Below are positions 5,592 through 42,468 of a stretch of DNA of 64,000 nt, piece after piece. The stretch is from an uncultured Verrucomicrobiae bacterium. Lineage in GTDB: Bacteria > Verrucomicrobiota > Verrucomicrobiia > Chthoniobacterales > UBA10450. Below the pieces are notes generated by a model. The model did no database searches and had not been told where the DNA came from. It saw only the letters and a list, made by a program, of their open reading frames with translations. The DNA lies in assembly GCA_963834385.1 (NCBI GenBank), contig CAWIBO010000003.1:392983-456982 (forward strand), in the 5' to 3' direction. The translations under genes were made by a program, and so were the position numbers. Position 1 is the first letter of the stretch. The number at the start of each line of letters is the position of its first letter.

Positions 5592-6242
5592 CTACCAGTG
5601 CAGCAGATCGAGCAGGCGGCGGGCCCCGGCGGGCGGCCGGGCCTTGCCGCTCAGGATGGTCCCGGCGCGGACGCGCCGGCCGTAATACCGCGCGTTCGAG
5701 CTTTTCTGAGTGGCGATGACCGCGCCCTCCAGGGAAACGCCGGCGAAAAGGCCTTTGCTGCGGCTGTAGGTGTAGACCGCGGCGGTGGGCATGACGCCCG
5801 CCTGCAGGTTGCGCCCCACCGGGCCGGCGGCGGCGCTGAGATCAGCTCCCAGGGTCACGTTTCCCTCCTCGGCGAAGGCCTGCACCGCCTGCGGGGTGTT
5901 GAGCACGAAAACAAAATCGGTTACCTGCGCGCCAATTTGCAGGCCCCAGCCGGCTCCGCCCGTGCCGACAAAGGAAGGCCCCGACCAGTTGCCGGAGCGG
6001 GTCCGCGCGACCACCACACCCTGCCCGCCTTTTCCGCTCAGGCCAAAGCCGACCTTGATCACGCGCAGGATGGCAAGGCCGCGCGCGTCGCTCAAGACAT
6101 TGGCCGGAATGGCGCTCTCGGGCATGCGGCGGAACTCGCGGATGATCTGGGCGGCTTCGTTCACGGTTTCCTGCGGCGTCGCGGCCTGGGCCGGGATGGG
6201 GCAGAGGGCGAGGAACAGGAGGGCGCAAAAAATCGTTCTCAT
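5592..6242 (-). CDS. Ysc84/SYLF (DUF500) lipid-binding domain protein, secreted
   Basis: Internal ATG at 6242 gives MRTIFCALLFLALCPIPAQA. The segment LAILRVIKVGFGLSGKGGQGVVVAR...GGAGWGLQIGAQ...YTYSRSKGLFAGVSLEG matches the SYLF pattern. The start overlaps the upstream stop (ATGA). I rejected the 474-aa ORF-track extension. Confidence 0.8.
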   Translation of the reverse strand: MRTIFCALLFLALCPIPAQAATPQETVNEAAQIIREFRRMPESAIPANVLSDARGLAILRVIKVGFGLSGKGGQGVVVARTRSGNWSGPSFVGTGGAGWGLQIGAQVTDFVFVLNTPQAVQAFAEEGNVTLGADLSAAAGPVGRNLQAGVMPTAAVYTYSRSKGLFAGVSLEGAVIATQKSSNARYYGRRVRAGTILSGKARPPAGARRLLDLLHW

Positions 6243-7234: not shown

Positions 7235-7284
7235 CTCCCTCTAAAACTACGGTCAGCGTCGCGCCGGTGCGCGTTTTTTTCACC

Positions 7285-7776
7285 ATGGAAGACCCGATCA
7301 TCGACCTGCAAAGCGATTCCTTTTTCATGCGCGAAGCGCTGCGGCTGGCGCAGAAGGCCTTCGCGGCCGGGGAAGTCCCGGTGGGCGCCGTGGTGGTGCA
7401 GGCGGGCCGGATCATCGGCCGTTCCCACAACCAGGTGGAGATGTTGAAGGACGCCACCGCGCATGCGGAAATGCTGGCCCTGACCCAGGCGGAAGCCGCC
7501 GTGGGCGACTGGCGCCTGGTCGACTGCGACCTCTATGTGACCAAGGAGCCCTGCCCGATGTGCGCCGGAGCCGCGGTGCATGTGCGGTTGCGCCGGGTCA
7601 TTTTTGGATGTGCCGACGAGCGGGGCGGAGCCGCCGGAGGGCTGCTCAATCTCCTGCAATTGCCCGGGTTGAATCATCGCTGCGAGATCACGCCGGGCGT
7701 CCTGGCCGAAGAAGCGTCGGCGCTCCTGCGCTCGTTCTTCCAGGCGAAACGGGCCCGGACGGCCCCGGAGGCGTGA
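7285..7776 (+). CDS. tadA: tRNA adenosine(34) deaminase
   Basis: Has the HAEMLAL and PCPMCAGA zinc motifs of CDA-fold TadA. The ATG at 7285 is preferred over the ORF-track start at 7198. Confidence 0.9.
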   Translation: MEDPIIDLQSDSFFMREALRLAQKAFAAGEVPVGAVVVQAGRIIGRSHNQVEMLKDATAHAEMLALTQAEAAVGDWRLVDCDLYVTKEPCPMCAGAAVHVRLRRVIFGCADERGGAAGGLLNLLQLPGLNHRCEITPGVLAEEASALLRSFFQAKRARTAPEA

Positions 7777-7808
7777 GCGGCCGCCGCGGCGCGGGTTGGA
7801 GGCGGGGA

Positions 7809-7882
7809 TGGCTGCCTCGCAAGGACTCGAACCTTGACAAAGAGATCCAGAATCTCTCGTGCTACCATTACACCACGAGGCA
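7809..7882 (-). tRNA. tRNA-Gln (anticodon CUG), CCA encoded
   Basis: I folded the cloverleaf by hand. Acceptor stem is TGCCTCG/CGAGGCA, anticodon stem AGAGA/TCTCT with loop TTCTGGA, T arm CAAGG-TTCGAGT-CCTTG, discriminator G followed by CCA. Confidence 0.9.
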
Positions 7883-7955
7883 AAATCGGGCGGGTGACAG
7901 GTAAGACCGTTCCCGGCCATCGCGCAAGTCGCGGGCCCGTGAAATTCCGGGCTTC

Positions 7956-8906
7956 TTAACCGTTCTCGCGGCGGTCGAGGACGATCTCGTCTCCCTCGCG
8001 CGCGGCTTCCACGGTCAGAGCCCGGCCGCTTTCCGCCACCTGCCGGCGGGCCGTCTTCACCATGCCGTCGATAAAAGCATCATCGTGGTTCGGGTCATGG
8101 TGAAAAAGCAGGAGCCGCTTCACCCCCGCGTCGAGCGCCAGCGAGATCGTGGCGCTGATATGGCCATGTCCCCAGCCCACTTTCTCCGGATATTCCTCGT
8201 CGGTATATTGGGTGTCGAGAAGGAGCACATCGGTGCCGGAAAGGAACTGGACCAGGCCGTCGCGTTCCTCCCGCGCGACCGAGGCCGCCTGCTCGATGCT
8301 GGCGTTTTCCCGCTCGGCCATCTGCCGCCGCAGGTGCTCGAACGGTTCGTTGTCCGGCAGATAAGCCACGGAGCCGCCGCTGGTGAAGAGGCGGAAGCCG
8401 CTGCAATTCCCAGGGTGATTTACGAAACGGGCGGCGATCCTGACCTGGCCGACCTGAAATTCCATTTCTTTCAGCTCGCGGATGGCCACGCAGCCGAAGA
8501 CATCATGCAGTTTGACCGGGAAGAAGGGGTTCTCCATCTGTTCGGAAAGGATGGCGGCGAGACCGTTGCTGGCCCCTTCGTAACCGAGAATGTGGATCTC
8601 ATTTTTCTTCTGGTAGGCGGGAAGAAAGAAGGGGAGGCCCTGGATATGGTCCCAGTGCGAATGGGTCAGGAGCATGGTCAGCTTGATCGGGCGCTCGCCA
8701 AATTCACGATCGAGGGAAAGGCCGAGCGGGCGGATGCCCGAGCCGGCATCGAGGACGATGATTTCGCCATCGGCCCGCAGCTCCACGCAACTGGTGTTCC
8801 CGCCGTAACCGATGGTGGACTGCCCCGGGACCGGGATCGAACCGCGCACGCCCCAGAGACGGAGGCGGGGTGCGGCCGGGTCCGGACTGGAAGAGGAACC
8901 GGTCAA
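7956..8906 (-). CDS. MBL-fold metallo-hydrolase
   Basis: 316 aa with the HSHWDHIQG (HxHxDH) motif and an N-terminal RLWGVRGSIP segment. Confidence 0.8.
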   Translation of the reverse strand: MTGSSSSPDPAAPRLRLWGVRGSIPVPGQSTIGYGGNTSCVELRADGEIIVLDAGSGIRPLGLSLDREFGERPIKLTMLLTHSHWDHIQGLPFFLPAYQKKNEIHILGYEGASNGLAAILSEQMENPFFPVKLHDVFGCVAIRELKEMEFQVGQVRIAARFVNHPGNCSGFRLFTSGGSVAYLPDNEPFEHLRRQMAERENASIEQAASVAREERDGLVQFLSGTDVLLLDTQYTDEEYPEKVGWGHGHISATISLALDAGVKRLLLFHHDPNHDDAFIDGMVKTARRQVAESGRALTVEAAREGDEIVLDRRENG

Positions 8907-9133
8907 AGCAGGAAGGGGGTTTGCGCCATGATCCGATTTTCCCGGCGCGATCCCGCGCGGCGGCCGGGTCCTGACCTGCTATTGGCGCGCGCGGCGCCCA
9001 TCCAATTCATTCGTTTAGTTCCGGCGGTCGGCATTGTTGCGCGCGAAGTCTGTCATGCCCGCCAGCGTGAACCAAGTGTTTTTCGCGCGTCTTGTGTAGC
9101 GTGGAGCGAGCGGGCGACGCGCGCCATTTGGAA

Positions 9134-9167
9134 ACAAAAACGGCCACCGGGCGAACCGCGGTGGCCG
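9134..9167 (-). terminator. Rho-independent terminator of the PEP-CTERM gene
   Basis: The cggccacc/ggtggccg stem is followed, on the minus strand, by TTTTTGT. It sits 22 nt after the stop at 9189. Confidence 0.6.
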
Positions 9168-9188
9168 TTTCCGAGGAGAAACGATTTT

Positions 9189-9764
9189 TTAGCTGTCTTT
9201 GCGACGGCGGAAGATCGTGTTGGCAACCCCAATCATGCCAAGACCCAGCACGCCGATGATCGGCGCGAGAGCGGACATCTCCGGCACCGGCACCGCGACT
9301 GAGCCGATGTTGTCAACCGGCGTGCCGTCGTTGCCACCGCCGTTGCGGGTGGCCGAGGCGGCGAAGTTATCGGTGCGCTGCTGATTGGTGTTGGAGACGG
9401 CTGAGAAGATGCCGAGGGCGTTCGGGCCCACGATGCTCTCCTGGCCGATATAGGTCCAGGTCAGGTTGAAAACACCCGCGTCATCCATCGGCAGGACGGT
9501 GGAAGGCGTGGTCCCGATGAGCGAGGACGAGAAGGTCCAGTCCATCGGCTGCGCGTTGGAGCCGGGGACGAAACCGCCGAAATCATAAATCGTGAAATAA
9601 TCGCCGGACTGCACCCGCTGGTCCAGGGTCGCATTGGCGGAATAGTTCCACTGGAAATTCGGGCCAACCGAAGCCGTGCTGTCGAAAGTGGGAATGATGT
9701 CCGCGGAGGCAGAAATCGCCATCCCTGTCGCTGCTAGTAAACCTAGAAAGTATGTCTTACGCAT
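9189..9764 (-). CDS. PEP-CTERM sorting-domain secreted protein
   Basis: The start MRKTYFLGLLAATGMAISASA is a signal peptide. The C-terminus VPEMSALAPIIGVLGLGMIGVANTIFRRRKDS has the PEP-like motif, a TM helix and a basic tail. It is adjacent to the exosortase gene. Confidence 0.75.
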   Translation of the reverse strand: MRKTYFLGLLAATGMAISASADIIPTFDSTASVGPNFQWNYSANATLDQRVQSGDYFTIYDFGGFVPGSNAQPMDWTFSSSLIGTTPSTVLPMDDAGVFNLTWTYIGQESIVGPNALGIFSAVSNTNQQRTDNFAASATRNGGGNDGTPVDNIGSVAVPVPEMSALAPIIGVLGLGMIGVANTIFRRRKDS

Positions 9765-9886
9765 ATAGTTTGGGTTGTTTCCATCCGTTATTTCAGTTTT
9801 GCGTCGCATCGTCAATAGAAAAGTCGTGCCACGGCTGAATAAATTTTTCCCACCCTTTCTCCGCGGTCTGTTCTAAAATCACCCCC

Positions 9887-11505
9887 GTGCCCGTTGCCGC
9901 CCCCGCCCACCACACCTCCAGCAACCACCCCGCGTCCCCTCAGCCGGGACGGTTCTCCTGGGAAAATGGGCTCGCCCTTTTCCTCTGGGCCTGGGCCATC
10001 TGGAGCTGCGCCGAGCACTGGGAAAACAACCCGAACTACTCCTATGGCTGGGCCGTTCCCGTCCTTGCCCTCGGCTTTGCCCTGCGGCGCTTTTTCCTGG
10101 CTCCTGCCGCGACCACGGGCGGGCACTCTGGCCCCGGCAGGGCCTGGCTGCTCCTGGCTGCGGCCGGTGCGGCGGCGTGGGTCTTCGGTCTGGAATATGC
10201 CCGTTTACAGGTCTGGCGCCCTCAGGTCGTTCTCACGGCCATTTGTTTTGGCGCCATTTTCTGGACGTTTCTCGTCCTCTGGAGCCATGGCGGTTTCCCG
10301 CTCCTGCGCCGCCAGCTTTTCCCGGTTCTTTTCTTTCTCACCGCGGTGCCCTGGCCGCCGCGGTTCGAACAGCCGCTCACGAGTGCGCTCATGGTGGGGG
10401 TGGCGCAGGCGACGGTGGAACTGCTGCACTGGAGCGGAATCGAGGCGAAACAGGCGGGAGGCGCCATTGCCCTGAGCACGGGTCTGGTGGGCGTGACCGA
10501 GGCCTGCAGCGGCATCCGCTCGCTCCAGGCGGGGATCATGTTTGGCCTGGCCATGGGCGAATGGTTTTTGCTGGGCGTGGGGCGACGCCTGCGTTCTCCT
10601 GGCGGCGGCCATCGGGCTCGCGCTGGTGACGAATCTCGGGCGCACCCTCGCCTTGTGCCTGCAGGCGGAGTGGCATGGCGTGGCCGCGGTGGAGAAAGTG
10701 CATGACCTGATCGGCACCGTGGTGATGACCGTTCTCATCGGCGGGATCTGGTTCGCCGGGCGGTTGCTGCGCGGCCCGCGAGGAGAAATGATTCCCGCGA
10801 AGGAACAGCTCCGGGCGAGGCTGGGCGCGCTGGCGGCGGGATGGAGACAGGCGCGTTTTCCGAACTTCTGGCTGGTGGTCCTCGTCGCCTTGTTGAGCTT
10901 CCTGGCGGCGCAATTCCTTAACGCGCGGCTGGAAGCGCGCGACCAGACCCAGCGCGAGCCCTTTTTCGCGGTGCAACCCTCCTTCCCGGGCAACAGCCGG
11001 GTGGAGGTGCCGCGCGAGATCATGCGCGCGCTCAATCCGACCAGCGGCGAATACATCCGGCGCGAGGACGCGTCCCTTCCGCGCGGGACCGGCGACGGTT
11101 ACCATTTCTTCTGGAAGCCGTCGCCCTGGAACCGGTTTGTCCTCGTGCATCGCCCCGATATCTGCATGCCCGGGATCGGCTGGCAGCTGGCTGGCCCGCC
11201 CGAGCCGGTCGAGGTGAAGTTCGGGGCGCGCACGCTGCTCTTTCACGCCTTTCGTTTTCAGCGGGGCGATCTGCATGCCCTGGCGCTCTGGGGTGCCTGG
11301 CGCAACGGCGACCCGGTCCTGATTGATTACCAGCCGGACGAGGTCCTGGGGGCGGGAGGGGCGCCACCCCCTGCTGGAGTTGCAGGGAAAACGGCGTTCC
11401 GCCACCGAGATCGTGGCCGGTCACGTCATGCAAAGGGGGGAAAAGCCCGCGCTGGAAAATGCTGTCGCCCTCCTGCGTGCGCTTTTCGTATACAAGGGAG
11501 AGTGA
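9887..11505 (+). pseudogene. Exosortase fused to an EpsI-family domain, read through three frames (2 frameshifts at about 10585 and 11350)
   Basis: Frame 1 shows NNPNYSYGWAVPVL...TEACSGIRSL, the exosortase Cys motif. Frame 2 continues with LALVTNLGRTLAL...H and the EpsI-like part (RPDICMPGIGW). Frame 3 ends ...EIVAGHVMQRGEKPALENAVALLRALFVYKGE*. The junctions fall at G4/G5 runs. Confidence 0.75.
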
Positions 11506-11513
11506 ACGAGAAC

Positions 11514-13232
11514 ATGGAGAAACCGCGGTTGAGCGACCGGGCGCAACGGCGTCTGCGGCAGAAACGTCGAACGCTTATCCTGGTCGCGTCCGGGTTGGTT
11601 TTCGTTCTTCTTCTCTTCACGGCGCGTCCGGCCTATCGCTGGTTCAAGGAACGGCGAGCCAACCAGTTTGCGGCCCAGGCGGAGGAACTGGTGGCTGAGG
11701 GAAAAATGGCCGAGGCCGCGGCAAAATACCGGGCGGCGCTGCAGCTGGACAAGCTGGGTTACCGCCCGCTCGCGGGGGCGGCCCGCCTGGCCACGCGTTT
11801 GAATCGTCCCGAAGCGGAGGGCCTCTGGCAGGAGGTGATGAAACTGCCGCAGCGCAGTCCGGCTGACCGGCAGGAATACATCTCGCTTTTGCTCCAGAAA
11901 AATCGGTTTCGCACCGCGGAAGACCAGCTCAAGCAACTCCTGCGGGTGCAAGCCGATGCCCGGGCCATGATGCTGGCCGCCCGCTACAAGCTGCGGGTGG
12001 GGGATGTGGCCAAGGCGATCGAGTTTGGCCGGGCCGGTGTGCGGATGGAGCCAAAGAACGATGCTGTCCGTTTTCAACTGGCCGAAGCGCTGGCGTCGGC
12101 GACGGAACCGGCTTTGCGGGCCGAGGCGAGATCGATCTTGTGGGAAATGACCCAGCGTGAAGGCTCGTTCCGGGCCGCGGCGCTGGAAGGGCTGGCACAG
12201 GCCCCGGAGCTGACACAGGAGGAACGGCGCACGCTCCTGGGGACGTTCGAGGCGTTGAAGGATCCGACCGCGAACCAGGCGGTCTTCGCGGCGGAATTGC
12301 GGTTGCAGCTCAATCCCGGCGAATCGGAGCAGATCTACGACAAATTATCCGCGCGCCTGGGGCAGGGTGACGAGGGGGACCTGAACGAGCTGGCGCGCTG
12401 GCTGAACCTGCACAAGCAATACGGCCGCGTGCTCAAGATGGTCCCGGAGGAAAAGGCGAAGAAGTCGAGCGACCTGATCCTTTCCCGGCTTGATGCTCTT
12501 GCCGGCCTGGAAAAGTGGGCGGAGATCGACACCATGCTGGGCAGCCCTGAGGTCAACCTGACCCCGGCCGTAATTGAAGCTTTTCGGGCCCGCGCCGCCC
12601 TTGGCCGGAACGACACCCTTAACGCCACGTTGCACTGGAACCGCGCGCTGAGCGCGAGTGGCGACGATCCCGAACGGCTGCGGCTGGTGGCCCATTTCGC
12701 CGAGCAGTCAGGCGCCAATGAGATCGCCGCCCGGGCCTTTGAACAGCTTTCGCGCTCGCCAGAACACGCCGCCTTCGCCTTTCGCGGAATGCAGCGTCTG
12801 GCCGACAAACGGGGCGATTCCGTCGCCCTCCGTTCCGTCAGCGACCGACTGGCCGAGGTGACACCGGAGGATGCGGATGCGCAGAACCAGGCGGCCTACA
12901 TGAATCTCCTGCTGAAGAATGACGTGGAAAAGAATGCCGCGGTGGCCCGCCGCCTGGTGGAGAAACACCCGACGCGGCTTGCTTTCCGGGTCACCGCCGC
13001 CCTGGGAGCCCTGCGCCAGCACAATGCCGCCGGGGCGCTCGCGCAATTCGAGGGTCCCGAGATCGAGTGGCGCCGGACGCCGCCGGCCTGGCGGGCGGTG
13101 TATGTCGCCGCGCTTCTGGCCAACGACCAATCGGCCAGGGCGGACTCCATCCGGCAGACGATTGACCCGGCCGGGTTGAAACCCGAGGAGCGGGCTCTGC
13201 TGGAGCGGGCGGCCGCCCCGGCGCAGGGTTAG
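11514..13232 (+). CDS. Membrane-anchored TPR-repeat protein (exosortase-locus associated)
   Basis: The ATG at 11514 lies inside the 896-aa track ORF. The sequence MEKPRLSDRAQRRLRQKRRTLILVASGLVFVLLLF is a TM anchor, followed by roughly 500 aa of Ala/Leu-rich TPR-like helices. Confidence 0.7.
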   Translation: MEKPRLSDRAQRRLRQKRRTLILVASGLVFVLLLFTARPAYRWFKERRANQFAAQAEELVAEGKMAEAAAKYRAALQLDKLGYRPLAGAARLATRLNRPEAEGLWQEVMKLPQRSPADRQEYISLLLQKNRFRTAEDQLKQLLRVQADARAMMLAARYKLRVGDVAKAIEFGRAGVRMEPKNDAVRFQLAEALASATEPALRAEARSILWEMTQREGSFRAAALEGLAQAPELTQEERRTLLGTFEALKDPTANQAVFAAELRLQLNPGESEQIYDKLSARLGQGDEGDLNELARWLNLHKQYGRVLKMVPEEKAKKSSDLILSRLDALAGLEKWAEIDTMLGSPEVNLTPAVIEAFRARAALGRNDTLNATLHWNRALSASGDDPERLRLVAHFAEQSGANEIAARAFEQLSRSPEHAAFAFRGMQRLADKRGDSVALRSVSDRLAEVTPEDADAQNQAAYMNLLLKNDVEKNAAVARRLVEKHPTRLAFRVTAALGALRQHNAAGALAQFEGPEIEWRRTPPAWRAVYVAALLANDQSARADSIRQTIDPAGLKPEERALLERAAAPAQG

Positions 13233-32997: not shown

Positions 32998-33080
32998 AAA
33001 CGGGATTTTTCCCGCTCCACAGTATCAGCGCTCTCTCGAAACGGAAGGGGCCGATGCCTTTTTTCCGTCACTTTGAGTCA

Positions 33081-33250
33081 GACGAAGAAGATTGAGGTCC
33101 GCAGATTACGCAGATGGACGCAGATTTTGGGGGAGGTGCCGGCGGCGCGACGGTCGGTGGCGGGTCCGCTTCTCTCTTCCGTCATCCTGAGCGAAGCGAA
33201 GGACCTCCCATGCCAGCACAACGCGACGCTTCCAGTTGCACCCTGGAGAG
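33081..33250. repeat. Direct repeat copy 1 (about 170 bp, MITE/REP-like)
   Basis: It aligns by eye with 33896..34058. The shared core is cagattacgcagat..gggggaggtgccggcggcgc..ccgtcatcctgagcgaagcgaaggacctcccatgccagcac. Confidence 0.8.
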
Positions 33251-33294
33251 ATCGCCAATGTGACAGCGTCTGGCGCTCGTTGTAGAATCGTTGC

Positions 33295-33516
33295 GTGAGC
33301 ACTGTCACCGAGATTCGCGAAGCGATCCGAAAGCTGCCAAGCGAGGACGCGTGGAAGCTGGCGGCTGAGTTGCGGGAGTATCTCGACGTTCTTTGGGATC
33401 GGCAATTCGAAGAGGATGTCAAAGCTGGTCGCCTGGACGATATAATCGCACACGCTCGCGAAGCGCACGCCGCGGGCAAGAGTCGGCCGATGGATGAAAT
33501 CATCGGGAACGACTGA
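33295..33516 (+). CDS. Putative antitoxin-like small protein (addiction-module component-like)
   Basis: 73 aa. MSTVTEIREAIRKLPSEDAWKLAAEL...WDRQFEEDVKAGRLDDII has the pattern of small antitoxins that precede RelE/ParE-type toxins. No intact toxin follows it. Confidence 0.4.
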   Translation: MSTVTEIREAIRKLPSEDAWKLAAELREYLDVLWDRQFEEDVKAGRLDDIIAHAREAHAAGKSRPMDEIIGND

Positions 33517-33605
33517 CTTCTGGCGACTTTATCGGCGGTTGCCGGAGCCGGTGGCAAAGAGATCGAAGGATACCTCGTTGGCTGTGCGAACAGGGAAGCG
33601 TTCGC

Positions 33606-33809
33606 TCACGCGAGGGCAACTTCCAACACCTTTGCACTCGGGGATAAACGAACTGGGCTGGGCTCAAACCATAGCTCCAAAGCCTCCTTGGCGTTGTGAA
33701 CTGCCTCTTCCTCGGTTTCACCAGCCGAGGCGCACCCAGGCAGCTCGGGAAAAAACGCGGCCCAACGATTCGTTTCCCGGTCCTGTTCCACCACAAGGCG
33801 CAATTTCAT
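33606..33809 (-). CDS. hicB: HicB-family antitoxin-like protein (UPF0150)
   Basis: 67 aa. MKLRLVVEQDRETNRWAAFFPELPGCASAGETEEEAVHNAKEALELW is the classic HicB N-domain pattern. I could not find a hicA partner. Confidence 0.6.
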   Translation of the reverse strand: MKLRLVVEQDRETNRWAAFFPELPGCASAGETEEEAVHNAKEALELWFEPSPVRLSPSAKVLEVALA

Positions 33810-33895
33810 GATCGAATGGTATGCGGTTCTTCTCTTGACGACAAACTCTCAATCCGATGTCGAGAAGAAGGAGGCGTGGCGATGCCGCGGAGCCT

Positions 33896-34058
33896 AACGA
33901 AGATGAAGTCCACAGATTACGCAGATTGACACAGATTAGGGGGAGGTGCCGGCGGCGCAACGGCCGGCGCCGGAGCTGCTTTCCCTTCCGTCATCCTGAG
34001 CGAAGCGAAGGACCTCCCATGCCAGCACCCGCAACGCCCCCAGTGTTACCTTGGAGGA
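33896..34058. repeat. Direct repeat copy 2 (about 163 bp)
   Basis: Same orientation as copy 1 and near-identical over the central core of roughly 60 nt. It brackets the two antitoxin-like genes. Confidence 0.8.
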
Positions 34059-34138
34059 CCCGATAGGCATAAAATGCGATAGCGAATGCAGCTCGCAGCG
34101 GAGAAGTTCCGCCACTGCGAAGGGTGCCCTTCCGAGGC

Positions 34139-34471
34139 TCAAGGTTTATCAATGGGAACCAGATCGACCATGCTGATCACCGCGTCCACGCGTCCCGTCT
34201 CCCGATGAATCCCAACCCGATAAATCTCCCCGGCTTGTAGAAGGAATCGGACAACAAAGATGGGGATGCTCCCACCCGATTCCGGTTCAATCGTTCCCTC
34301 CGTCACTTTGACGATGGTCGATTCGGGCAGCCTGTGCCCGTCGCGTTCGAGAGCCCCCTTGGCGATTCGAATGGCCTCACGCTGCGACACTGGTTGATGC
34401 CTGGTAAGCTGATCATCTTTGAAGGAGCAGCCCGCAACCAACAAAGTGACGACAAGAAAGAAACGTCTCAT
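34139..34471 (-). CDS. Small lipoprotein, hypothetical
   Basis: 110 aa with lipobox MRRFFLVVTLLVAGC. Confidence 0.55.
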   Translation of the reverse strand: MRRFFLVVTLLVAGCSFKDDQLTRHQPVSQREAIRIAKGALERDGHRLPESTIVKVTEGTIEPESGGSIPIFVVRFLLQAGEIYRVGIHRETGRVDAVISMVDLVPIDKP

Positions 34472-34544
34472 GGGCCGGGAGCCGTTTTTCCTTTGTCCAT
34501 TGGGAAGGGTTGACGTGACTTTAGCCGAACGGAAGATCTCGGAG

Positions 34545-34586
34545 AGCGATTTTTCTTGGGTCGAGCCTTTGGAACCTTTTTGACCT
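34545..34586. repeat. Short intergenic repeat, copy 1
   Basis: agcgatttttcttgggtcgagcctttggaacctttttgacct matches 35289..35345, apart from a 12-13 nt insertion in the second copy. Confidence 0.5.
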
Positions 34587-34609
34587 CGGCGGTCTGCGTC
34601 CGGGCGCGG

Positions 34610-35146
34610 CTAAAGATCGCCGTATGCGCGGCCGGTATAATCTTCAAATTTAAAGCCGCTGCGCTCAGTGATCTTGCGCTGTGCTTTTAGAACAAATGTG
34701 AAAAGCAGGTGGCCACGGATGCCACGCGCCGCCACCAGGCCATCGCCGGTGCCGAACGAATACGACTTCACGATTTCAAGACGCCGATCGTCGTAGCCTA
34801 TCCAGAAGGGGAGGCGGACGAAGCCCAAGTCGTTTTTGAGCTGGAAAAGCGCTGCTTTTACCGGTTCGTTTCCTTCCGAAAACTCGCCCAACGCCATGAC
34901 AAACCACGCGATGTCAACGATGGCGGGATGCTGTTCCCATGAGAGTGCGGGATGCGCATTTAAGTCGAGATGGGCTGCTGCGGCGGACTCACGCAGCCGA
35001 GTGACCGCGAGTTCCAGCCCGCCAAGGACCATCTCTTCGTCGTATCTGATATCGACCGACGTCGTGCCTTCCGCCTCAACAGCCCGAATCGGCGAGCTGC
35101 CTGCGAGGCAGAACAACACAGCTATAACGACCTTCCTAGATGTCAT
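34610..35146 (-). CDS. Secreted hypothetical protein
   Basis: The ATG at 35146 gives the signal-like MTSRKVVIAVLFCLAGSSPIRAVEA. 178 aa. Confidence 0.5.
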   Translation of the reverse strand: MTSRKVVIAVLFCLAGSSPIRAVEAEGTTSVDIRYDEEMVLGGLELAVTRLRESAAAAHLDLNAHPALSWEQHPAIVDIAWFVMALGEFSEGNEPVKAALFQLKNDLGFVRLPFWIGYDDRRLEIVKSYSFGTGDGLVAARGIRGHLLFTFVLKAQRKITERSGFKFEDYTGRAYGDL

Positions 35147-35288
35147 CTGTATCTGCAGGTGCCATTCTCTACGGTGTAGCACTATCATGAGCAGGAGCAG
35201 GAGTCGCGGCAAAAGCCGCGGAGCCTACACGGTCCGCTACGTTCTTGTCATTTTCGGCTTTTCTTAAAATGAAACGGAAAAACTGCGA

Positions 35289-35345
35289 AGGCGATTTCTC
35301 CTGGGTCGAGCCCTTGAATCGACCCATTTGGAACCTTTTTGACAT
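35289..35345. repeat. Short intergenic repeat, copy 2
   Basis: aggcgatttctcctgggtcgagcccttgaatcgacccatttggaacctttttgacat. Confidence 0.5.
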
Positions 35346-35463
35346 TCTGCTTAAATACCCGGCAAAACCGGACGCGAGATCCTGTTTTTCCAGGGTTACG
35401 GACCCTCGTTTGATACCCTTTTGACAGTTGGCGGCGAACATTGGTCCTCACTCGGCATCGCTA

Positions 35464-37021
35464 TTAGACGCTCCAACGCTGTATAATGTCGATCAAGCCG
35501 CGGGTGTCTTGCGCGCAGTATTTTTCGAGTGCTCTTCCTGACACGGCGTCGTTCCCACCAGCTAATTTGAGAAACGCTGATCCGCATGAATTCGCGGCTG
35601 GCGATCTCACCGTCGCTGATCTGCAGGCCGTCGTAGGACGTCGCTGTCAATGCCGGCAACACCGCTTTGAGCGACGCGCTGCCATTCTGCGATGGATGAT
35701 AATATGCCATCCCGCGGAATACTTCGAGCAAATCGAGAAAACGCCGCGACACTGCGCTGACCCACTGAGCGCACTCCGGGAAATACAACGCACAGTCGGC
35801 TAGTCTCTTGGCTTCGAAGTTCGTGTTGTAGCCAACGATGCTGCCGCGCTCGCCTAACAGCTCTCTGAGCTCAAGGAGGAACGCTGGTCGAGGATCGTCG
35901 TTGCCGTCGGCAAGAAAGCTGTGGTGCTCCACCCGCGCGCCTTTGCTTCTGATGATGTGGAGGGAGAATTGAAACGGGATCTGGGTGTACGGGCGGGACC
36001 GGTCGAATAGCGGAACAGCCGACTGGATTGTTTCGAAATCGAGGAAATGCAACGGATACTCGAGTCGCGACAGGAATTGTCTTATCGCTGCGCGATCTAC
36101 GTGTGGCGTTCCGCTTCGGTGAGATGCGACCTGTCGAACCTGCGCGTCGGTTAGAACCATATCTGATGGCATGTCTTCGATTCGAAGAATCCCTCGAGCG
36201 AGCAGATCCCAAGGCCGGCTTTTTGCGTTCCGTAAATCGAACACGCTCGGTTTCGGGAGAAAAGCCCAGCACGATTCCATCAGCGAACAGTCATATGGGT
36301 CCGTGCAATGACGTGACACCTTCACGTCCGGACATTCCGCTAAAGCCAAAACCGGTTTCATTTCTTCCACCTTTCCATGAACCGCCGGTAGCAGTGCGTT
36401 GATCGGGACGGTTACGTCAATTCGGGTTAGCAATTGATGCGGATTAATGTCGCCGGTCCGAATGTATTTTTTGTTCACCAACAGCAGGTAACAGTTCCTA
36501 ATCGATAGTCCTGCGCCTTCGTAGACGTAGCGTTGGAAGGCGAGATCCTGGAGATAAACCTCTCTGAGATCATCTAAGTCTTCGGGGACTCCTGAGCTCT
36601 TTACCTCGATGACGTCCCAGCGCCCATCTGCCGTTGGAGCAAGAATGTCCGCTCTGCTAAAGCACCCGTTGTAAATGAATGAAGCTTCGAAGATCGCTTT
36701 ACCTTGGCGCAGCGCATCGCGAGTCGCGCTAACGGGTTCGGCAAAGCCACCTATATCGCCAAGATCGACACCGCCAGGATATAGCTTCTTCGCCCACTGG
36801 CCGACTTTGTGGCCCTGATCGAAAATGGCTTCCAAGGTGGCGTCAACCGGCGGAAGCAGAGCCTTGTTGTTATAATGAATCCAGAGCGCTTTCGGACACT
36901 GCAGGCCAACCAGATACTTTGTCTTCGATATTAACGGCGGCCCTTTGAGCGACGCCTCGTTTTCTAGAGCGAACCAGCCGGTAAGCAACCGACCTAGGGA
37001 TAAAACAGCCGATCGCATCAT
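35464..37021 (-). pseudogene. DUF2779-type protein: N-terminal Cas4/RecB-like PD-(D/E)XK nuclease plus C-terminal DEDD-like exonuclease domain; C-terminal frameshift at about 35570-35590
   Basis: Motifs seen: KTKYLVGLQCPKALW, RADIL...WDVIEVKSS (D..ExK), LQDLAFQRYVY (QxxxY), the Cys cluster CTDPYDCSLMESC, then HFLDFETIQ..IPFQFSLH and VGYNTNFE. Shifting frame near 35580 restores ...GRALEKYCAQDTRGLIDIIQRWSV* (YC..DT motif) with a stop at 35464. Confidence 0.7.
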
Positions 37022-37035
37022 GACAAAGCCGCGAA

Positions 37036-37311
37036 CTACTTGCCGAACCAATCCGTGATATCGAAAAAGACGCTTAACTCCTTCCCGTCCGGTCCCTGCA
37101 AGATGATTTCATCGATCTGACGACCCGCTTCGTTTTTGCGAGAACGCTGGCGGAGCTTCTGATGCCGCGGGAACTGCGCTTTTATCCACGCTTTTTCAGC
37201 GGCAACACCCTGCTGCTCGTTCTTTGCCTTTGGCAGCGTGATGTGAGCCGAAGCATCCGCGGCCCAATTGGGATCGATCATCCAGTTTTGTTGGTCGTCT
37301 TCTTCTAACAT
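37036..37311 (-). CDS. Hypothetical 91-aa protein (island operon)
   Basis: The ORF is tightly packed. Its start lies 6 nt after the upstream stop, and its stop lies 14 nt before the DUF2779 ATG. No recognisable domain. Confidence 0.45.
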   Translation of the reverse strand: MLEEDDQQNWMIDPNWAADASAHITLPKAKNEQQGVAAEKAWIKAQFPRHQKLRQRSRKNEAGRQIDEIILQGPDGKELSVFFDITDWFGK

Positions 37312-37317
37312 TGTCTT

Positions 37318-37536
37318 TCAGCTGCGGTTCCGACCAGCCAGACTGCCCAGCCAAAGTCTGCGGTTCCGCGTCGAGTCCGAGGCAAGGCCGCTGATTTTGC
37401 GCTGAGCGTCGACAATCGCTTGGGCGTCCCGTTTGTCAGCGACCCAGGCGATTAATTTCTTTTGTGGCCCGACAATCGCCCACGGAAATCCATTCGGCGG
37501 ATTAATCTGTGCTGCGTCAATTTTCCACTGATTCAT
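37318..37536 (-). CDS. Hypothetical 72-aa protein (island operon)
   Basis: ORF MNQWKIDAAQINPPNGFPWAIVGPQKKLIAWVADKRDAQAIVDAQRK... No recognisable domain. Confidence 0.4.
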   Translation of the reverse strand: MNQWKIDAAQINPPNGFPWAIVGPQKKLIAWVADKRDAQAIVDAQRKISGLASDSTRNRRLWLGSLAGRNRS

Positions 37537-37615
37537 GTCCTTAAGCTTAGCCGCGAGAAGGCGCTAACTTCAGGACAAAGTTCGGGGACGGAATCCATCC
37601 AGCCATTAGTCGCCA

Positions 37616-38227
37616 TCAAATGTAATTTGCAATCGCATCGGCGATCTTGAATCGGCATCCAAGCGACTGAGCCCTTAACGGGTGAGCGGGCGCGGTTGAT
37701 AGTGATGGGGGATTATAAACTACTTTCGAAGTAGCGCCGTTTAAATAGAACGGACTCGGACGCGGACTGAGGGATGACAATGCAGCTAAAGCGGAAGCAG
37801 CCTGGCCCTTCGGAAAATTACTCCCCCAAGCAAACCAACAAAATCTCGCGCTGCGATTGGGTGATTGGTCGCCTGGACACAGGCTTTTCAACGCAGCGTA
37901 AACATTTGAGTTGCATAAATAAAAAAGGTTTAGAATCTCGACATAGTCTCCTATTTTCGGGCCTCCGCGCTTCGCCTTTAGTTGCGCTTCATTCAGGATT
38001 TTGATCACCGCGTGCATCGTGTTGTCTAGCGTCGGCCAAACGCCCCAAGTAGTCGTTGCGGCTACCGGCTTCTGTGTGCCGGGATTGCACATCCAAATGA
38101 TACCGACACAATTACCCTGATGCTGCTGGTAACTTTGGATAGGCGTCGTGGCAGGCAGAAAGTACGCCCTAGTGTCCTTACGCGTGTGCGGCGGACCTAC
38201 ATCCCATTGTCCGTAAACGAGCGCCAT
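37616..38227 (-). CDS. DUF1643-like (uracil-DNA-glycosylase-fold) protein
   Basis: 203 aa. VGIIWMCNPGT...LDNTMHAVIKIL...YVEILNLFYLCNSN...RFCWFAWGSNF parallels the DUF1643 pattern (mlNPStA..D.T...v.NLF...aWG) as I recall it from memory. Confidence 0.5.
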   Translation of the reverse strand: MALVYGQWDVGPPHTRKDTRAYFLPATTPIQSYQQHQGNCVGIIWMCNPGTQKPVAATTTWGVWPTLDNTMHAVIKILNEAQLKAKRGGPKIGDYVEILNLFYLCNSNVYAALKSLCPGDQSPNRSARFCWFAWGSNFPKGQAASALAALSSLSPRPSPFYLNGATSKVVYNPPSLSTAPAHPLRAQSLGCRFKIADAIANYI

Positions 38228-38241
38228 ATTCTTGAGCCGCT

Positions 38242-39288
38242 TTAACCCTTCTGAAGCAATTTTCGCAGCCGACGAAAATCGCCGGAATCCTTAAACCCGA
38301 TCTTTGCGGCAACAAACTCATAGCGTTTGTCACCTTTCAATCCTTGTCGGCGCGCAAAGCGATCAGCGAGCTTTGCCTCTCGTTTAAGGCCGACTAGTTC
38401 GCGTCGGCCGATTGAAAAGCCTAGCCCTTGTCGGGCGATACCCCGTGCTCGATGTAGCTGCATCACTTTCGAAAAATCGAGGTCACGCTTCGGGTCCAAG
38501 CTGAGATATCCCGGAATGAACAATTGCGTTCCATACGGAGTAAAGACGACCGACGTTTTCAGCAGCAGTGGTGTGTCGTCCTCCATTCCCCACAGATAGT
38601 ACTTCCAGCAAAGTAGGTCGAATAAGGCTTGGAAACGCGCGCCGTCATCGGTGAACTCGGCGCCCGGACCGCGTTCCCAATTCCGTTCTGGCATTAAGGA
38701 GCGATTGATTACTTTCTTCCGAGCGATCGATTGCGGGAAAGTTTGTTTGAGAAGGGCCCATTCGTTTCGAAAGTCTTCTGACTGCTCCAGATAGAATAGA
38801 TACTCATCATACTTCTCCTGCGCCCTCAGGTAAAATTCGTAGCGCCCTTCATGCACCAGCGTTTCTGATTCTCGGATCACCCCCGGCGCGGCAACCTCCA
38901 GTCGATTGAAACCGCATCGACCGTCAGCGGCATTAAACTGAACAATCATTTCAGCGAGGAGGATCGCCGCGGGATCCGGCGAGGCTGAAGTGAGCGCGCT
39001 CTTCAAGTAGTTGGCGTAATTTTCTGGAAACGCGGGGAAGGCGGATTCGCACTGCCAAAAAGCGTAACAGCACCAGCCTAGTGCTTCGGCCAGCAGCTCC
39101 ACGTTGGGATCGTCATTTTTCGCCAGGACTTTCGGAACTCTTGCAAACAGAAATTCGATTAGGGATCGCGCCTCGGTCGAATCGACAAACGGTAGCGATT
39201 TTAGATGAGCGACGACTTTGGATCGCCATCCCGTTTTAGGGAGACCAAACCGATTCAACCATGTCGCCGCGAACGCCTGTTCACGCAT
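38242..39288 (-). CDS. Hypothetical 348-aa protein, first gene of the island minus-strand operon
   Basis: Long ORF with coherent coding texture. Its stop lies 14 nt before the next start. No motif I can name. Confidence 0.55.
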   Translation of the reverse strand: MREQAFAATWLNRFGLPKTGWRSKVVAHLKSLPFVDSTEARSLIEFLFARVPKVLAKNDDPNVELLAEALGWCCYAFWQCESAFPAFPENYANYLKSALTSASPDPAAILLAEMIVQFNAADGRCGFNRLEVAAPGVIRESETLVHEGRYEFYLRAQEKYDEYLFYLEQSEDFRNEWALLKQTFPQSIARKKVINRSLMPERNWERGPGAEFTDDGARFQALFDLLCWKYYLWGMEDDTPLLLKTSVVFTPYGTQLFIPGYLSLDPKRDLDFSKVMQLHRARGIARQGLGFSIGRRELVGLKREAKLADRFARRQGLKGDKRYEFVAAKIGFKDSGDFRRLRKLLQKG

Positions 39289-39379
39289 CAGTTACGTTAT
39301 ACGCGGCACGGCAGGAAACGCGAAGGCTGAAGATTGGTCCCATACTCAGTCCTGAATTTCCTCTTCGACATCCAGTAAG

Positions 39380-40405
39380 TTGGCGGCGTTGAAAACGATT
39401 GGGCCAATCATAACCGCACTAGATATCGGCCACTCGAAGTGCTGCATGGCCTGCGCCGAGGCAGACCCGCGCGGGTTTCTCCAGCTAATCGGAGTCGCCG
39501 AACGGTCATTCCTGATCGATCCGCCCCAAGCGAACGCATCAGCCGATTTATTGCAGAGAACGATCGCCGATCTCGTTAGACATTTCGAGCAGAAACACGA
39601 AATTGTAATTCACACTGTTCAGCTGGCCGTCAACGGAAAGGACATTCGAGGCGAAACATTCGCCGATGCCGAGCAAGCGGCCATCCCCTTCGGGAACGAA
39701 ATCATTCATCGGTTCGATAGCTGCGGTCGCGAAGTTGATTGGTGGAATTTCGCGCAGGGACACATCATTCACGCGAAAAGAAGTTCGATCGAAGAGAAAA
39801 TAAGGATCGCACGCCGCGCCGGTCTCCAGGTGAATCGACTAGTTCTCACTAGTTTGGCCAGCGCATTTGCCGTGACTAGATCGGCGGAACGCGACGGTCG
39901 GAATTGCCTGGTGATCGATATTGGCAGTAGCAGTGCCGGCTATGTTTTATTTTACGAGGGCAGCATTGCAGCCAGCGGAGTCATCGAAGCCGGAGGACAT
40001 CTAATCACCGCCGAAATTGCGTCTTCTCAAAATGTCTCGTGGGCAAAAGCGGAGCAACTAAAACTGGCCCCGCCCAATGACTCGGCAGAAAGCGAGATCA
40101 TCGCGCGTCATTTGATTGAGCTTTTTTGCAATGTCGCTGAGAAGGTCCGCAGTGGGTTATCGAAGACTGGGTATGTCTACCTGACTGGCGGAACGAGTCG
40201 ATTTCCAAACATCGAACTGATTGCCGCGGGAGTGTTCGATCGACCGGTTTATCGCGCTGCCGCGTTGAACTTCGTGGGCGAATGCGAGCCTACGCGACCG
40301 GAACAATCCACTGCGTTGGGGTTGCTAAAATACGCCGTGTCACACGGTAGCGTCCCGCGCAAAGAATGGCAGGCACGGCGCTGCACCAGGAACCCAGTTT
40401 TATGA
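39380..40405 (+). CDS. FtsA/actin-fold (ASKHA) ATPase-like protein
   Basis: Phosphate-1 ITALDIGHSK, phosphate-2 CLVIDIGSSSAGYVLF, then GGHLITAEIA and the adenosine motif YLTGGTSRFPNI. A region resembling the FtsA SHS2 (1C) insert lies between them. TTG start, so the start is uncertain. Confidence 0.7.
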   Translation: MAALKTIGPIITALDIGHSKCCMACAEADPRGFLQLIGVAERSFLIDPPQANASADLLQRTIADLVRHFEQKHEIVIHTVQLAVNGKDIRGETFADAEQAAIPFGNEIIHRFDSCGREVDWWNFAQGHIIHAKRSSIEEKIRIARRAGLQVNRLVLTSLASAFAVTRSAERDGRNCLVIDIGSSSAGYVLFYEGSIAASGVIEAGGHLITAEIASSQNVSWAKAEQLKLAPPNDSAESEIIARHLIELFCNVAEKVRSGLSKTGYVYLTGGTSRFPNIELIAAGVFDRPVYRAAALNFVGECEPTRPEQSTALGLLKYAVSHGSVPRKEWQARRCTRNPVL

Positions 40406-41523
40406 AAACAACCCCTCAGCCAGAAATGAAAACCACACCTCTTGCGCTCACACACGGTGTCGTTACCACCCGATGGCCAGATCAGTATTCGAATGATCCA
40501 TTCGCGATCGGAGCCACGCAAGGTTGGCATTCGATGTCCCGATCGGGGCGATGGAATGCCGCAAAAATGATGCATGATTTGCACGCAGCTTTAATTCACT
40601 CCCGCGCCGCTGATCGCACAGGAGTCTCAAAAACCGGGAAGGTCTATTGGGGAACGCTAATCTTCGCCCCCGACAAAAGCCGTTATGTGGCTTTGCATCA
40701 TTACGGGGATGAGATCTGGTTCCTTCGCGTTTGGGCGAATTCCGCCGTTGTCGCGGCCAGCGAATTCAACCGCTTGAGAAAGAGGTATCTCTTGGCCGAT
40801 CGTGACGACGGCTCTGGAGAATTCTTCATTTTAACCCATGGAATGGCTGGACCAGATAAGCGTCGTATCAAGGTGCCGGAGCGGAAACTGAATGAAGCAG
40901 AATTACATCTGCACTATGGCGACGACTTTGTTGTTTGGCATACGCAATTGATGGAGCTAATCCGTACCCAAAAGACCGGTGTCACTATTCTGCAAGGACC
41001 GCCCGGGACCGGTAAAACGAGCTACCTTCGCCATCTGCTGTTCGCAACGCAGAAAACGCATCGCTTTTACTATCTGCCGATCAGCGTTTATCCGATGCTC
41101 GTAGCACCGACATCAGTGGACTTCTGGATTGGCGAGAATGAGACAACCGAGTGCCTAACTAAAGTGGTCGTAATCGAAGACGCCGAAGCGCTCCTCATGC
41201 AGCGGGACAACGGCAACCAGGAATCGGTTTCTAATTTACTCAACATTGCAGACGGATTCCTCGGCGACTTTCTGAAACTGCACGTGATCTGTACCATCAA
41301 CGCGCCGGTTGAGAAGCTGGACCCGGCGGTAACACGACCGGGGCGTCTGATTGCCTCACGCCAATTTCGTCGCCTAACAACTAGCGAGGCAATGCGCTTG
41401 GCAAACGCAAAAAATCTCAGGCTCGAGCCGCGCGAGGACTATTCCCTAGCCGAGATTTATAACGGTTCTGCCGCCCGGCTTGACGAATCTAATGATCGAA
41501 CTCTAGGATTCTCCCCTCATTAA
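40402..41523 (+). CDS. AAA+ ATPase (classic/BCS1-like clade) with an unknown N-terminal domain of about 200 aa
   Basis: The ATG at 40402 overlaps the upstream stop (ATGA). Walker A is GPPGTGKTS, Walker B VVVIEDAEAL, followed by LLNIADGF, sensor-1 CTIN and the Arg finger PAVTRPGRL. Confidence 0.8.
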   Translation: MKTTPQPEMKTTPLALTHGVVTTRWPDQYSNDPFAIGATQGWHSMSRSGRWNAAKMMHDLHAALIHSRAADRTGVSKTGKVYWGTLIFAPDKSRYVALHHYGDEIWFLRVWANSAVVAASEFNRLRKRYLLADRDDGSGEFFILTHGMAGPDKRRIKVPERKLNEAELHLHYGDDFVVWHTQLMELIRTQKTGVTILQGPPGTGKTSYLRHLLFATQKTHRFYYLPISVYPMLVAPTSVDFWIGENETTECLTKVVVIEDAEALLMQRDNGNQESVSNLLNIADGFLGDFLKLHVICTINAPVEKLDPAVTRPGRLIASRQFRRLTTSEAMRLANAKNLRLEPREDYSLAEIYNGSAARLDESNDRTLGFSPH

Positions 41524-41541
41524 CCAGATGACTTCAATTCT

Positions 41542-41727
41542 ATGAAACAAGACAATCAGCATCCACCACGCAAAGGTGAGACCTCGGCCAAATCTGCCTC
41601 GGTCAAAAACGACAAACTAGCTGCCAACGTTCAAGCGAGCCTAGAGCAGTTAAAAAAAGACGTAAAAGCGGGCGATCGCAAAGCCGCTGAGTTTCAAAAG
41701 TTGCTAAATGCCTTTCGGAAACATTGA
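41542..41727 (+). CDS. Small basic helical protein (61 aa)
   Basis: The ORF starts 18 nt after the AAA+ stop. It is Lys-rich and looks helical (ASLEQLKKDVKAGDRKAAEFQKLLNAFRKH). Confidence 0.4.
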   Translation: MKQDNQHPPRKGETSAKSASVKNDKLAANVQASLEQLKKDVKAGDRKAAEFQKLLNAFRKH

Positions 41728-41784
41728 AGTCGCGACGATGGATCAAGCATCTGCGAGCACACCCTTGTCTTGGCAGATTCCTAA

Positions 41785-42104
41785 ATGACTGATCTGGAAT
41801 ATCAACTACGCGTCAGCGAATTAGACGTTCGTGATAAAGAAGCGCGATTGAAAGAAGCGCGCACCCGGTTCGATACCACTGCAGCTAAAGGTCGATCTGA
41901 GGTGCAGCTAAAGGTCGATCTGAGGTCGAAAAAGCCAAAGCAGATCTCAGCAAGATTGAAGCGGAAACTATCGCGGCTTACGAAAAGGCCAAGCAGGACT
42001 TGGAGCGCGCACAGATAGATTTGGATCGCGAGAAGTGCGGTCTTGAATATGCACGCGCGAACCTCGCCCGGGGATCGGATCATAAATCTCCGACTCAAGA
42101 GTAA
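41785..42104 (+). pseudogene. Coiled-coil protein gene disrupted by a 23-bp tandem duplication
   Basis: As written, the ORF stops at 42018 after a frame change. Removing one 23-nt copy gives a clean 98-aa heptad-like ORF (…AAKGRSEVEKAKADLSKIEAETIAAYEKAKQDLERAQIDLDREK…TQE*) ending at 42104. Confidence 0.55.
41881..41926 (+). repeat. Perfect 23-bp tandem duplication (2 copies)
   Basis: gcagctaaaggtcgatctgaggt occurs at 41881-41903 and is repeated exactly at 41904-41926. Confidence 0.9.
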
Positions 42105-42468
42105 TGATGAATTTTGATTTGCCGCATGGCTATTCGTCTACGCCTTGACCCGTTGCCAGCCTGCGACGTGCGCCGGAACAAAATGCGGCGTTTGAATCCA
42201 CCGGGAATTGGCATCTTTTGGCGCCGACGGCGGGCGCTGGCGGATCTGTGGTGTCGCGGGACGCGGTCATTTTCGCTCGGTTTTCGACAGGCAGATGTTC
42301 CTGCTGGTCTCGAGTGATCATTTTAACCGGAAGAAGTTCGTCCGACCCTCATCAATTTACGGAATCACTACGACAACATCTGGATGATTGGTTCTAAGAT
42401 GTGCTCGAGAATACCGAGGATTAACTGTTTAGGCCTAACCAGCCTGAGTTTTCGTATTACAGAAATCC

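Follow-up and report, generated by a model that had tools for sequence, protein, structure and literature searches.

The 64,000-nt stretch of DNA analysed here (hereafter the window; contig CAWIBO010000003.1, positions 392,983 to 456,982, from an uncultured Verrucomicrobiae bacterium, assembly GCA_963834385.1) carries an AT-rich island at ~33.0–42.47 kb; this DNA was acquired horizontally and adjoins the 3′ end of a tRNA-Asp gene. The island contains two divergent gene arms, which are parts of one recurrent accessory module anchored by a 348-residue protein, p348, with interchangeable DNA-enzyme partners. p348 is the hub protein of the module and had not been singled out in the preliminary description of this DNA, made from the sequence alone. 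The positions of the open reading frames (ORFs) agree with those given there. The genes of the module and the right boundary of the island are listed below, with identities to homologues in related loci (numbered L001 onwards).

35396..37021, minus strand: DUF2779 protein, 541 amino acids (aa) as annotated; PF11074, E = 4e-38; PADLOC Cas4, E = 2e-4
37036..37311, minus strand: p91, small conserved partner; identity 54% (L012) and 35% (L013)
37318..37536, minus strand: p72, small conserved partner; identity 76% (L012), 61% (L013) and 61% (L007)
37616..38227, minus strand: p203, 203 aa; family of 82 representative clusters
38242..39288, minus strand: p348, 348 aa, first gene of the minus arm; characterised by homologue search, alignment and an AlphaFold 2 (AF2) model
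39320..39357, no strand assigned: conserved non-coding element with a degenerate palindrome at 39331–39346
39380..40405, plus strand: FtsA-like actin-fold ATPase; PF14450, E = 1.2e-14; best Protein Data Bank (PDB) match FtsA 7q6d, E = 1.4e-13
40402..41523, plus strand: Bcs1-like AAA+ ATPase; PF00004, E = 7e-10; AF2 mean predicted local distance difference test (pLDDT) 81.8 with a 28-sequence alignment
41542..41727, plus strand: 61-aa ORF, GC-content 0.47, without a relative in the related loci
41785..42104, plus strand: coiled-coil protein gene, disrupted by a 23-bp duplication (comparison with L001)
42126..42424, plus strand: p97 pseudogene, last gene of the operon; intact 97-aa homologue in L001
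42469..42542, minus strand: tRNA-Asp(GUC), intact, right boundary of the island; Rfam tRNA, 70.8 bits; 3′ end towards the island

Composition and boundaries of the island

The GC-content is 0.530 over 35396–42468 and 0.539 over 33001–42468 versus 0.642 in the rest of the window, and sliding windows reveal a single dip in the whole 64 kb. The tetranucleotide distance of 3-kb windows in the island is 10–15.6 standard deviations above the outside mean. The GC-content of third codon positions (GC3) is 0.47–0.66 in the island genes versus 0.77–0.82 in the flanking PA14-like, RDD and SppA genes. The compositional deviation proposed in the preliminary description is thus borne out by all three measures, and its hand counts (50–53% versus 65–67%) were correct in direction and size, though slightly too extreme. 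On the left side, the GC-content falls gradually from ~33.0 kb and not from 34.1 kb, where the island had been taken to start. On the right side, it recovers sharply at the tRNA-Asp gene, whose 3′ end the island does abut, as had been reported. An Rfam scan of the window found two tRNAs as its sole matches.

The foreign origin of the island follows from the deviation of GC, GC3 and tetranucleotides, and from the composition of related contigs: those of L007, L012 and L013 have a GC-content of ~0.52–0.56 throughout, like the island rather than the host. The absence of housekeeping genes stated earlier was confirmed, with no such family in Pfam and NCBIfam scans.

The p348-anchored module and its relatives

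Whether the island genes co-occur elsewhere was left as a question by the preliminary description, and the related loci answer it. A single contig, L012, reproduces both arms of the window gene for gene in the order DUF2779←p91←p72←p203←p348 / FtsA-like→transmembrane (TM) gene→AAA→p97, with 38–76% identity to the window proteins. In L013, five genes lie on one strand (p348→p203-like→p72→AAA→DUF2779), and L001 and L003 keep the divergent p348/FtsA-like pair. Since L012, L013, L001, L003 and L007 retain p348 with shared partners, the two arms constitute one module; the divergent transcription described earlier is real, while the two operons are not independent systems. Where the sources name an organism, the module belongs to Verrucomicrobiota; the few named hosts of p348 are given as Verrucomicrobiota, Prosthecobacter and Akkermansiaceae.

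The FtsA-like/AAA+ linkage is not obligatory, because in L003 an unrelated ORF of 116+ aa (1506–1853, no Pfam or PADLOC match) follows the FtsA-like gene in place of AAA+. In an independent Logan assembly, a further gene comes after the FtsA-like gene, at the place that AAA+ has in the window. The 11.8-kb contig L007 contains two p348 paralogues, two tandem Bcs1-like AAA+ paralogues, a TM gene and DUF2779 (5671–8537, 89–592/8639–9673). Its AAA+ paralogues are ~40% identical to the window protein, and both p348 paralogues have partner genes. Given these paired p348 and AAA+ paralogues, the module family duplicates and diversifies within one locus.

A metagenome scan with the p348 alignment yielded 80 further loci, and all their ORFs were clustered, p348 being present in 82 loci. 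The partners found in these 82 loci are an MBL-fold (metallo-β-lactamase) hydrolase of ~430 aa (20 loci), the Bcs1-like AAA+ (14), a GGACT-domain protein (12), a fusion of FtsK-gamma with a DnaE NTPase/finger fragment (10), DUF2779 (8), the FtsA-like protein (7), p203 (6, plus 3 in a second, p203-like cluster whose similarity is shown for L007 only) and a Pfam-type DUF1643 protein (6). Other partners include uracil-DNA glycosylase-like (UDG-like), DnaQ-like and PD-(D/E)XK-like proteins, phosphoesterases, Phd antitoxin, Fic and HsdR; some of these names come from inspection of the sequences by eye, without a model match, and the UDG-like, DnaQ-like and PD-(D/E)XK-like ones were mainly assigned in that way. 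Among 141 neighbour families, Pfam recognised Nmad3, SIR2, Fic, MPTase-PolyVal and two integrases, and strong PADLOC matches were BrxL, SspH, a type I S subunit, IetA, MkoA, SoFic and several PDC candidates.

The DnaE-derived partner, a 461-aa “mini-DnaE”, joins a winged helix of the FtsK-gamma type to a part of DNA polymerase III alpha that is limited to the NTPase and finger domains. It was found in L045–L052, L069–L072 and L080 (e.g., L049, 13785–15170), and it is a neighbour of p348 in 10 loci, one of them on a contig from a human-gut metagenome. The smallest modules are ~3.7 kb long and lie between ordinary genes, as in L009 (Akkermansiaceae GCA_019634595.1), located beside rpsO-pnp. The gene after p348 in this locus (11096–11947) has a GC-content of ~0.45 in a genome of 0.63, and p348 itself is near host composition, which suggests that the cassette downstream of a resident anchor gene was replaced.

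A search of 5.8 billion proteins found 141 p348 homologues (clusters), all labelled hypothetical. Their alignment (A1) has 42 invariant columns, many of them polar or charged, which suggests an enzyme or a specific binding protein over a simple repressor. The AF2 model of p348 has a mean pLDDT of 81.6; it found nothing with E below 0.9 in the PDB or BFVD. Pfam gave no match, nor did a profile search against PDB sequences. An R...K...HxxR pattern led to p348 being considered as a tyrosine recombinase, and this was rejected, as no conserved Tyr follows the pattern and no recombinase fold was matched. In BrxR/CapW-type arrangements, a conserved regulator gene heads variable defence operons. The p348 module is alike in its conserved first gene, upstream palindromic operator and variable downstream genes; it differs in that p348 has no WYL or helix-turn-helix match and no fold match.

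The 91-bp intergenic region between the p348 and FtsA-like arms is conserved between loci whose proteins are only 58–75% identical. In relatives, the palindrome has the form AGTTTG-N4-CAAACT and lies ~50 nt upstream of the p348 start. Of 59 distinct upstream regions, 7 have the core GTTTG-N4-CAAAC at 44–56 nt before the p348 start, versus ~0.05 expected, these regions being homologous and not independent. The palindrome-bearing element lies in many loci, among them the window, L001, L007, L019, L030, L038, L039 and L093, and L030 has the perfect 16-bp palindrome AGTTTGGGCCCAAACT. The element is likely an operator for a regulator. A sigma-70 promoter scan was uninformative (4 sites versus 5.3 expected).

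The p203 protein had been labelled DUF1643 in the preliminary description. Pfam DUF1643 (PF07799) was not reached at E ≤ 0.1, and none of the 42 family members scanned matched it at E ≤ 0.01; what stands of the label is a weak remote similarity. An hhalign comparison with two genuine DUF1643 proteins gave E = 0.0019 at a probability of only 14%, with the NP(G/S)xA, NLF and AWG motifs aligned (NPG(S/T) in p203). Hence, p203 is possibly a very distant DUF1643 relative.

DUF2779 proteins are fusions of a Cas4-like PD-(D/E)XK nuclease with an RNase H-like 3′-5′ exonuclease (PMC13621843, PMC3985635). The window protein scores 130.9 bits with PF11074, the gathering cut-off being 23.3 bits. It resembles the DUF2779/“solo Cas4”-exonuclease fusions, such as MMSYN1_0389 of JCVI-syn3.0, in its full-length DUF2779 match and Cas4-like N-terminal region. 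It differs from them in lying inside a p348 module and in having the YxxxD motif destroyed by two indels.

The FtsA-like protein has FtsA as its best Pfam, NCBIfam and PDB match (PilM and EutJ are more distant) and shares with it the phosphate-1 DIGHSK, phosphate-2 DIGSSS and adenosine GGTS motifs, read by eye. It differs in being 60–80 residues shorter and in scoring 106.3 bits with TIGR01174, below the cut-off of 175.85 bits. No SHS2 (1C) domain (PF02491) was matched in the window protein or in its four close relatives, P0001–P0004; the domain is present in more distant true FtsAs and in a paralogue from L019. The genomic context differs as well, the neighbours being p348 and AAA+ and not the ftsQ/ftsZ genes of the division and cell wall (dcw) cluster. 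Just these four close relatives were found among the 5.8 billion proteins, and a fifth was found in L012; of the ~five relatives, four adjoin p348. The L019 paralogue (8623–9831; the same gene in L020) is a full-length FtsA of 402 aa with SHS2, divergent from an adjoining p348, a hint that duplication of FtsA gave rise to the short FtsA-like proteins in the module. The ORFs downstream of it encode 103 and 81 aa, too short for FtsZ.

The start of the AAA+ gene overlaps the FtsA-like stop as ATGA, an arrangement that predicts translational coupling of the two genes. In the protein, a classical AAA domain comes after a beta-rich one at the N-terminus; its family has at least 922 homologues, and the Walker A and Walker B motifs (GPPGTGKT and IEDAE) are invariant in alignment A2. 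The AAA+ assignment made earlier was correct and can be narrowed to Bcs1-like by PDB fold matches: the top seven are all Bcs1, aligned over 349–401 columns including the beta-rich domain, with E from 9e-13 to 3.5e-10 and TM-scores of only 0.34–0.51. Bcs1 itself translocates the folded Rieske protein in mitochondria. The window protein is like it in having a classical AAA domain after a beta-rich domain, which may correspond to the “middle” domain, and its best full-length PDB matches are to Bcs1. Unlike Bcs1, it shares only 14–17% sequence identity with it, lacks an N-terminal TM helix in the same chain (none is evident, and residues 1–31 are of low confidence in the model) and neighbours p348 and nucleases, a context unrelated to respiratory-complex assembly. 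Pfam BCS1_N gave no match at E ≤ 0.1. BCS1 orthologues have been reported in jumbo phages (PMC7824862). In the relatives L001, L012 and L007, a separate gene of 85–86 aa lies by AAA+, and its product reads as a 2-TM protein; this gene is absent from the window, including the space between the FtsA-like and AAA+ genes.

The window copy of the module is decayed. The plus-strand operon, described earlier as having four genes, has five, the pseudogene at 42126–42424 having been missed; besides the FtsA-like and Bcs1-like proteins, it encodes small helical proteins. This p97 pseudogene carries one frameshift and an in-frame TAA in comparison with the intact 97-aa homologue in L001, and when repaired, it is 60% identical to L001 and 53% to L012. 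The coiled-coil gene contains the exact 23-bp tandem duplication that had been reported, at 41880–41925 (repeat family D8). With one copy dropped, the gene again encodes a protein of 98 aa, which has 73% identity to its 92-aa counterpart, intact in L001. In the DUF2779 gene, a lesion exists as reported; however, it is not a single frameshift. Comparison with L007 and L012 places a +1 indel near 35536 and a compensating −1 indel near 35480, 57 nt apart. The frame stays open, and the two indels scramble 19 codons, the conserved YCAQD motif among them, ALEKYCAQDTRGLIDII being replaced by STRKILRARHPRLDRHY. Since the compensating indels leave the ORF open, the public record annotates the gene as an intact protein of 541 aa. 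The place of the family among 3′-5′ exonucleases (PMC3985635) leads us to infer that YCAQD is the YxxxD exonuclease motif. Decay was rightly recognised and is wider than the two disrupted genes first counted: with disabling lesions in three genes and no gene for the TM partner, the module copy in this genome is probably inactive.

Function and origin of the module

There is about an even chance that the module is a DNA-directed conflict system, acting in defence or in modification-dependent restriction. The PADLOC and Pfam matches among the neighbour families of p348 give it a conflict-type context that favours this interpretation. In such a system, a palindrome-bound regulator would control both arms, and target DNA would be attacked or processed by the p203 and DUF2779 enzymes. 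A membrane-proximal, ATP-driven effector or assembly device could consist of the Bcs1-like ATPase and the FtsA-like protein as filament former; in relatives, the 2-TM partner would join this device.

Several points weigh against this interpretation and the route of acquisition through the tRNA. The roles of the FtsA-like and Bcs1-like proteins are conjecture. No PADLOC system model was matched beyond the P-loop or Cas4 level (mad8, 2.4e-5 over 36 residues; Cas4, 2e-4), as expected from the earlier statement that no nameable defence system is present, and the partner proteins from related loci gave no match in PADLOC-DB 2.0. The defence-gene matches near p348 may be no more frequent than the background. 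The DnaE fragment, UDG-like proteins, phosphoesterases and MBL hydrolases fit DNA repair or modification equally well. The lesions of the window copy could in principle be sequencing or assembly errors, because only one assembly holds the region. The 22-nt 3′ end of the tRNA has no second match in the window with up to 3 mismatches, and acquisition via the tRNA is unsupported because there is neither such an attachment-site (att) repeat nor an integrase. A candidate att site at 35210–35228 (10 nt exact within 19 nt at 79% identity, repeat family D12) was judged a chance match.

A broader proposal, which is tentative, holds that the p348 clusters represent a hitherto unrecognised family of DNA-directed immune or DNA-modification systems, known to date only from Verrucomicrobiota-type genomes, in which an orphan-fold hub under a palindromic operator would recruit interchangeable cassettes (glycosylase-like, Cas4/exonuclease, MBL nucleases, mini-DnaE), one branch having in addition a membrane-proximal machine of Bcs1-like, 2-TM and SHS2-less FtsA proteins. 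If true, conflict biology would have put both a folded-protein translocase type and a divisome-type actin to a new use. In the literature searched, no paper describes the module or connects an FtsA-like protein with defence against phages, and the module as a whole is not covered by any model of Pfam, PADLOC, PHROGs or NCBIfam. New findings here are p348 as the hub, the likeness of AAA+ to Bcs1 and the additional pseudogene.

The island itself is ordinary. Its cargo is a module conserved across dozens of environmental contigs and human-gut metagenome contigs, with an anchor lacking a detectable relative of known fold or function and partners that are nearly all DNA enzymes. Should it prove to be a defence or modification system, it would bring a new hub protein and a Bcs1-like/FtsA-like effector pair from a poorly studied phylum into the prokaryotic immune repertoire. 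The intact copies in L012 and L013, 5–7 kb long, are short enough for synthesis and testing; the window copy is a natural partial knock-out of limited direct use.

The island resembles tRNA-associated genomic and defence islands in its foreign composition, position at a tRNA 3′ end, ATPase/nuclease cargo, toxin-antitoxin debris and pseudogenisation. It differs from them in having no integrase, no att repeat and a cargo that belongs to no catalogued defence system, and the related p348 modules are generally not beside tRNAs. It is unlikely that an integrative mobile element came in at tRNA-Asp, lost its integrase and left the island as its remnant, the p348 module being the element’s own maintenance machinery. 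Under that hypothesis, an initiator or recombination function would have gone unrecognised in p348, the DUF1643-like and Cas4/exonuclease proteins would process DNA and the FtsA-like protein would serve segregation. The contact of foreign DNA with the tRNA 3′ end and the mosaic gene content around a conserved anchor agree with such an origin, as do the transposases or integrases found near p348 in a few loci and the occurrence of DUF1643 as a backbone gene of the ccr complex of the staphylococcal cassette chromosome (SCC), in phage genomes and as insertion sequence cargo.

The searches for mobility genes speak against a remnant element. Most island proteins were scanned with Pfam, NCBIfam, PHROGs and PADLOC without an integrase, transposase or phage structural family being found, in agreement with the preliminary description, and no relaxase, replication or capsid family was found in the island with Pfam, NCBIfam and PHROGs. 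The tRNA 3′ end had been called an insertion site; its end is not directly repeated in the window, and just one locus among ~90 with p348 lies within 10 kb of a tRNA. The AF2 model of p348 is unlike any PDB recombinase or initiator, and modules as small as the ~3.7-kb one of L009 lie between ordinary genes. p348 is absent from IMG/VR and PLSDB. A phage origin was rejected: the PHROGs matches in the island are limited to AAA+ (families of unknown function) and HicB, and the likeness of viral relatives to AAA+ is mostly that of a shared AAA domain, at 26–44% identity. A plasmid origin was rejected too, with no PLSDB match for p348 and two partial matches only for AAA+.

Less probable again is a role in repair or base modification of the host genome, the module being an accessory operon that is mobile just as many others are. 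The partners are typical of DNA transactions (UDG-like, DUF1643, DnaQ-like, FtsK-gamma/DnaE, MBL-fold, metallophosphoesterase, GGACT and Nmad3 proteins), and the conserved operator suggests regulated, possibly stress-induced expression. Such a role fits poorly with the rare and patchy distribution (141 clusters among 5.8 billion proteins), the rapid turnover of partner genes, the known defence and toxin-antitoxin genes close by in some loci and the pseudogenisation of the window copy; furthermore, the palindrome is unlike the Verrucomicrobia LexA box, TGTTC-N4-GAACA.

It is very improbable that these are ordinary core genes of odd composition or a chimeric assembly: the region is present in one long assembly only, every island and flank protein found in the protein collection is a singleton 90% cluster, and the nearest genomes in an SppA-based search are only 44–49% identical and belong to other phyla, but each island gene has a GC3 lower by ~0.2, the value rising sharply again at the tRNA, relatives of the island genes occur at 38–84% identity on contigs of ~0.53–0.56 GC, none of the genes belongs to a housekeeping family and the independent Logan assembly carries the FtsA-like gene with a further gene.

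Left end of the island

The part of the island to the left of the module contains a pair of direct repeats and several small genes:

33093..33219, no strand assigned: copy 1 of a ~135-bp direct repeat (repeat families D1, D2 and D4)
33295..33516, plus strand: 73-aa ORF between the repeats; no Pfam match; GC3 0.66
33606..33809, minus strand: orphan HicB-like antitoxin fragment, 67 aa; PF15919, E = 2.4e-10; phrog_497, E = 1.5e-12
33904..34028, no strand assigned: copy 2 of the direct repeat, 83–98% identical to copy 1
34139..34471, minus strand: predicted lipoprotein of 110 aa (N-terminus ...LLVAGCS); no family match
34610..35212, minus strand: 200-aa ORF, probable signal peptide from Met ~35146; no family match

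The sequence at 34058, previously called a REP-like repeat (repetitive extragenic palindrome), is actually one of two copies of the ~135-bp direct repeat, which occurs exactly twice in the 64-kb window. The pair flanks an 810-bp cassette with the 73-aa ORF and the HicB-like fragment, and it looks like a small inserted or duplicated cassette and not a genome-wide REP element. The HicB-like fragment comprises the N-terminal domain only (PF15919 profile positions 4–46 of 123), and no HicA was seen beside it when the ORF list was read by eye.

Neither the lipoprotein nor the 200-aa protein has a relative in the related loci. Upstream of the lipoprotein gene, the sequence at 34528–34584 is paralogous to that upstream of the 200-aa gene (35273–35343; repeat families D3 and D5), with 80% identity over 44 nt and a 17-nt exact block. 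The two small exported proteins are otherwise unrelated, and this likeness suggests that their genes share a promoter or leader.

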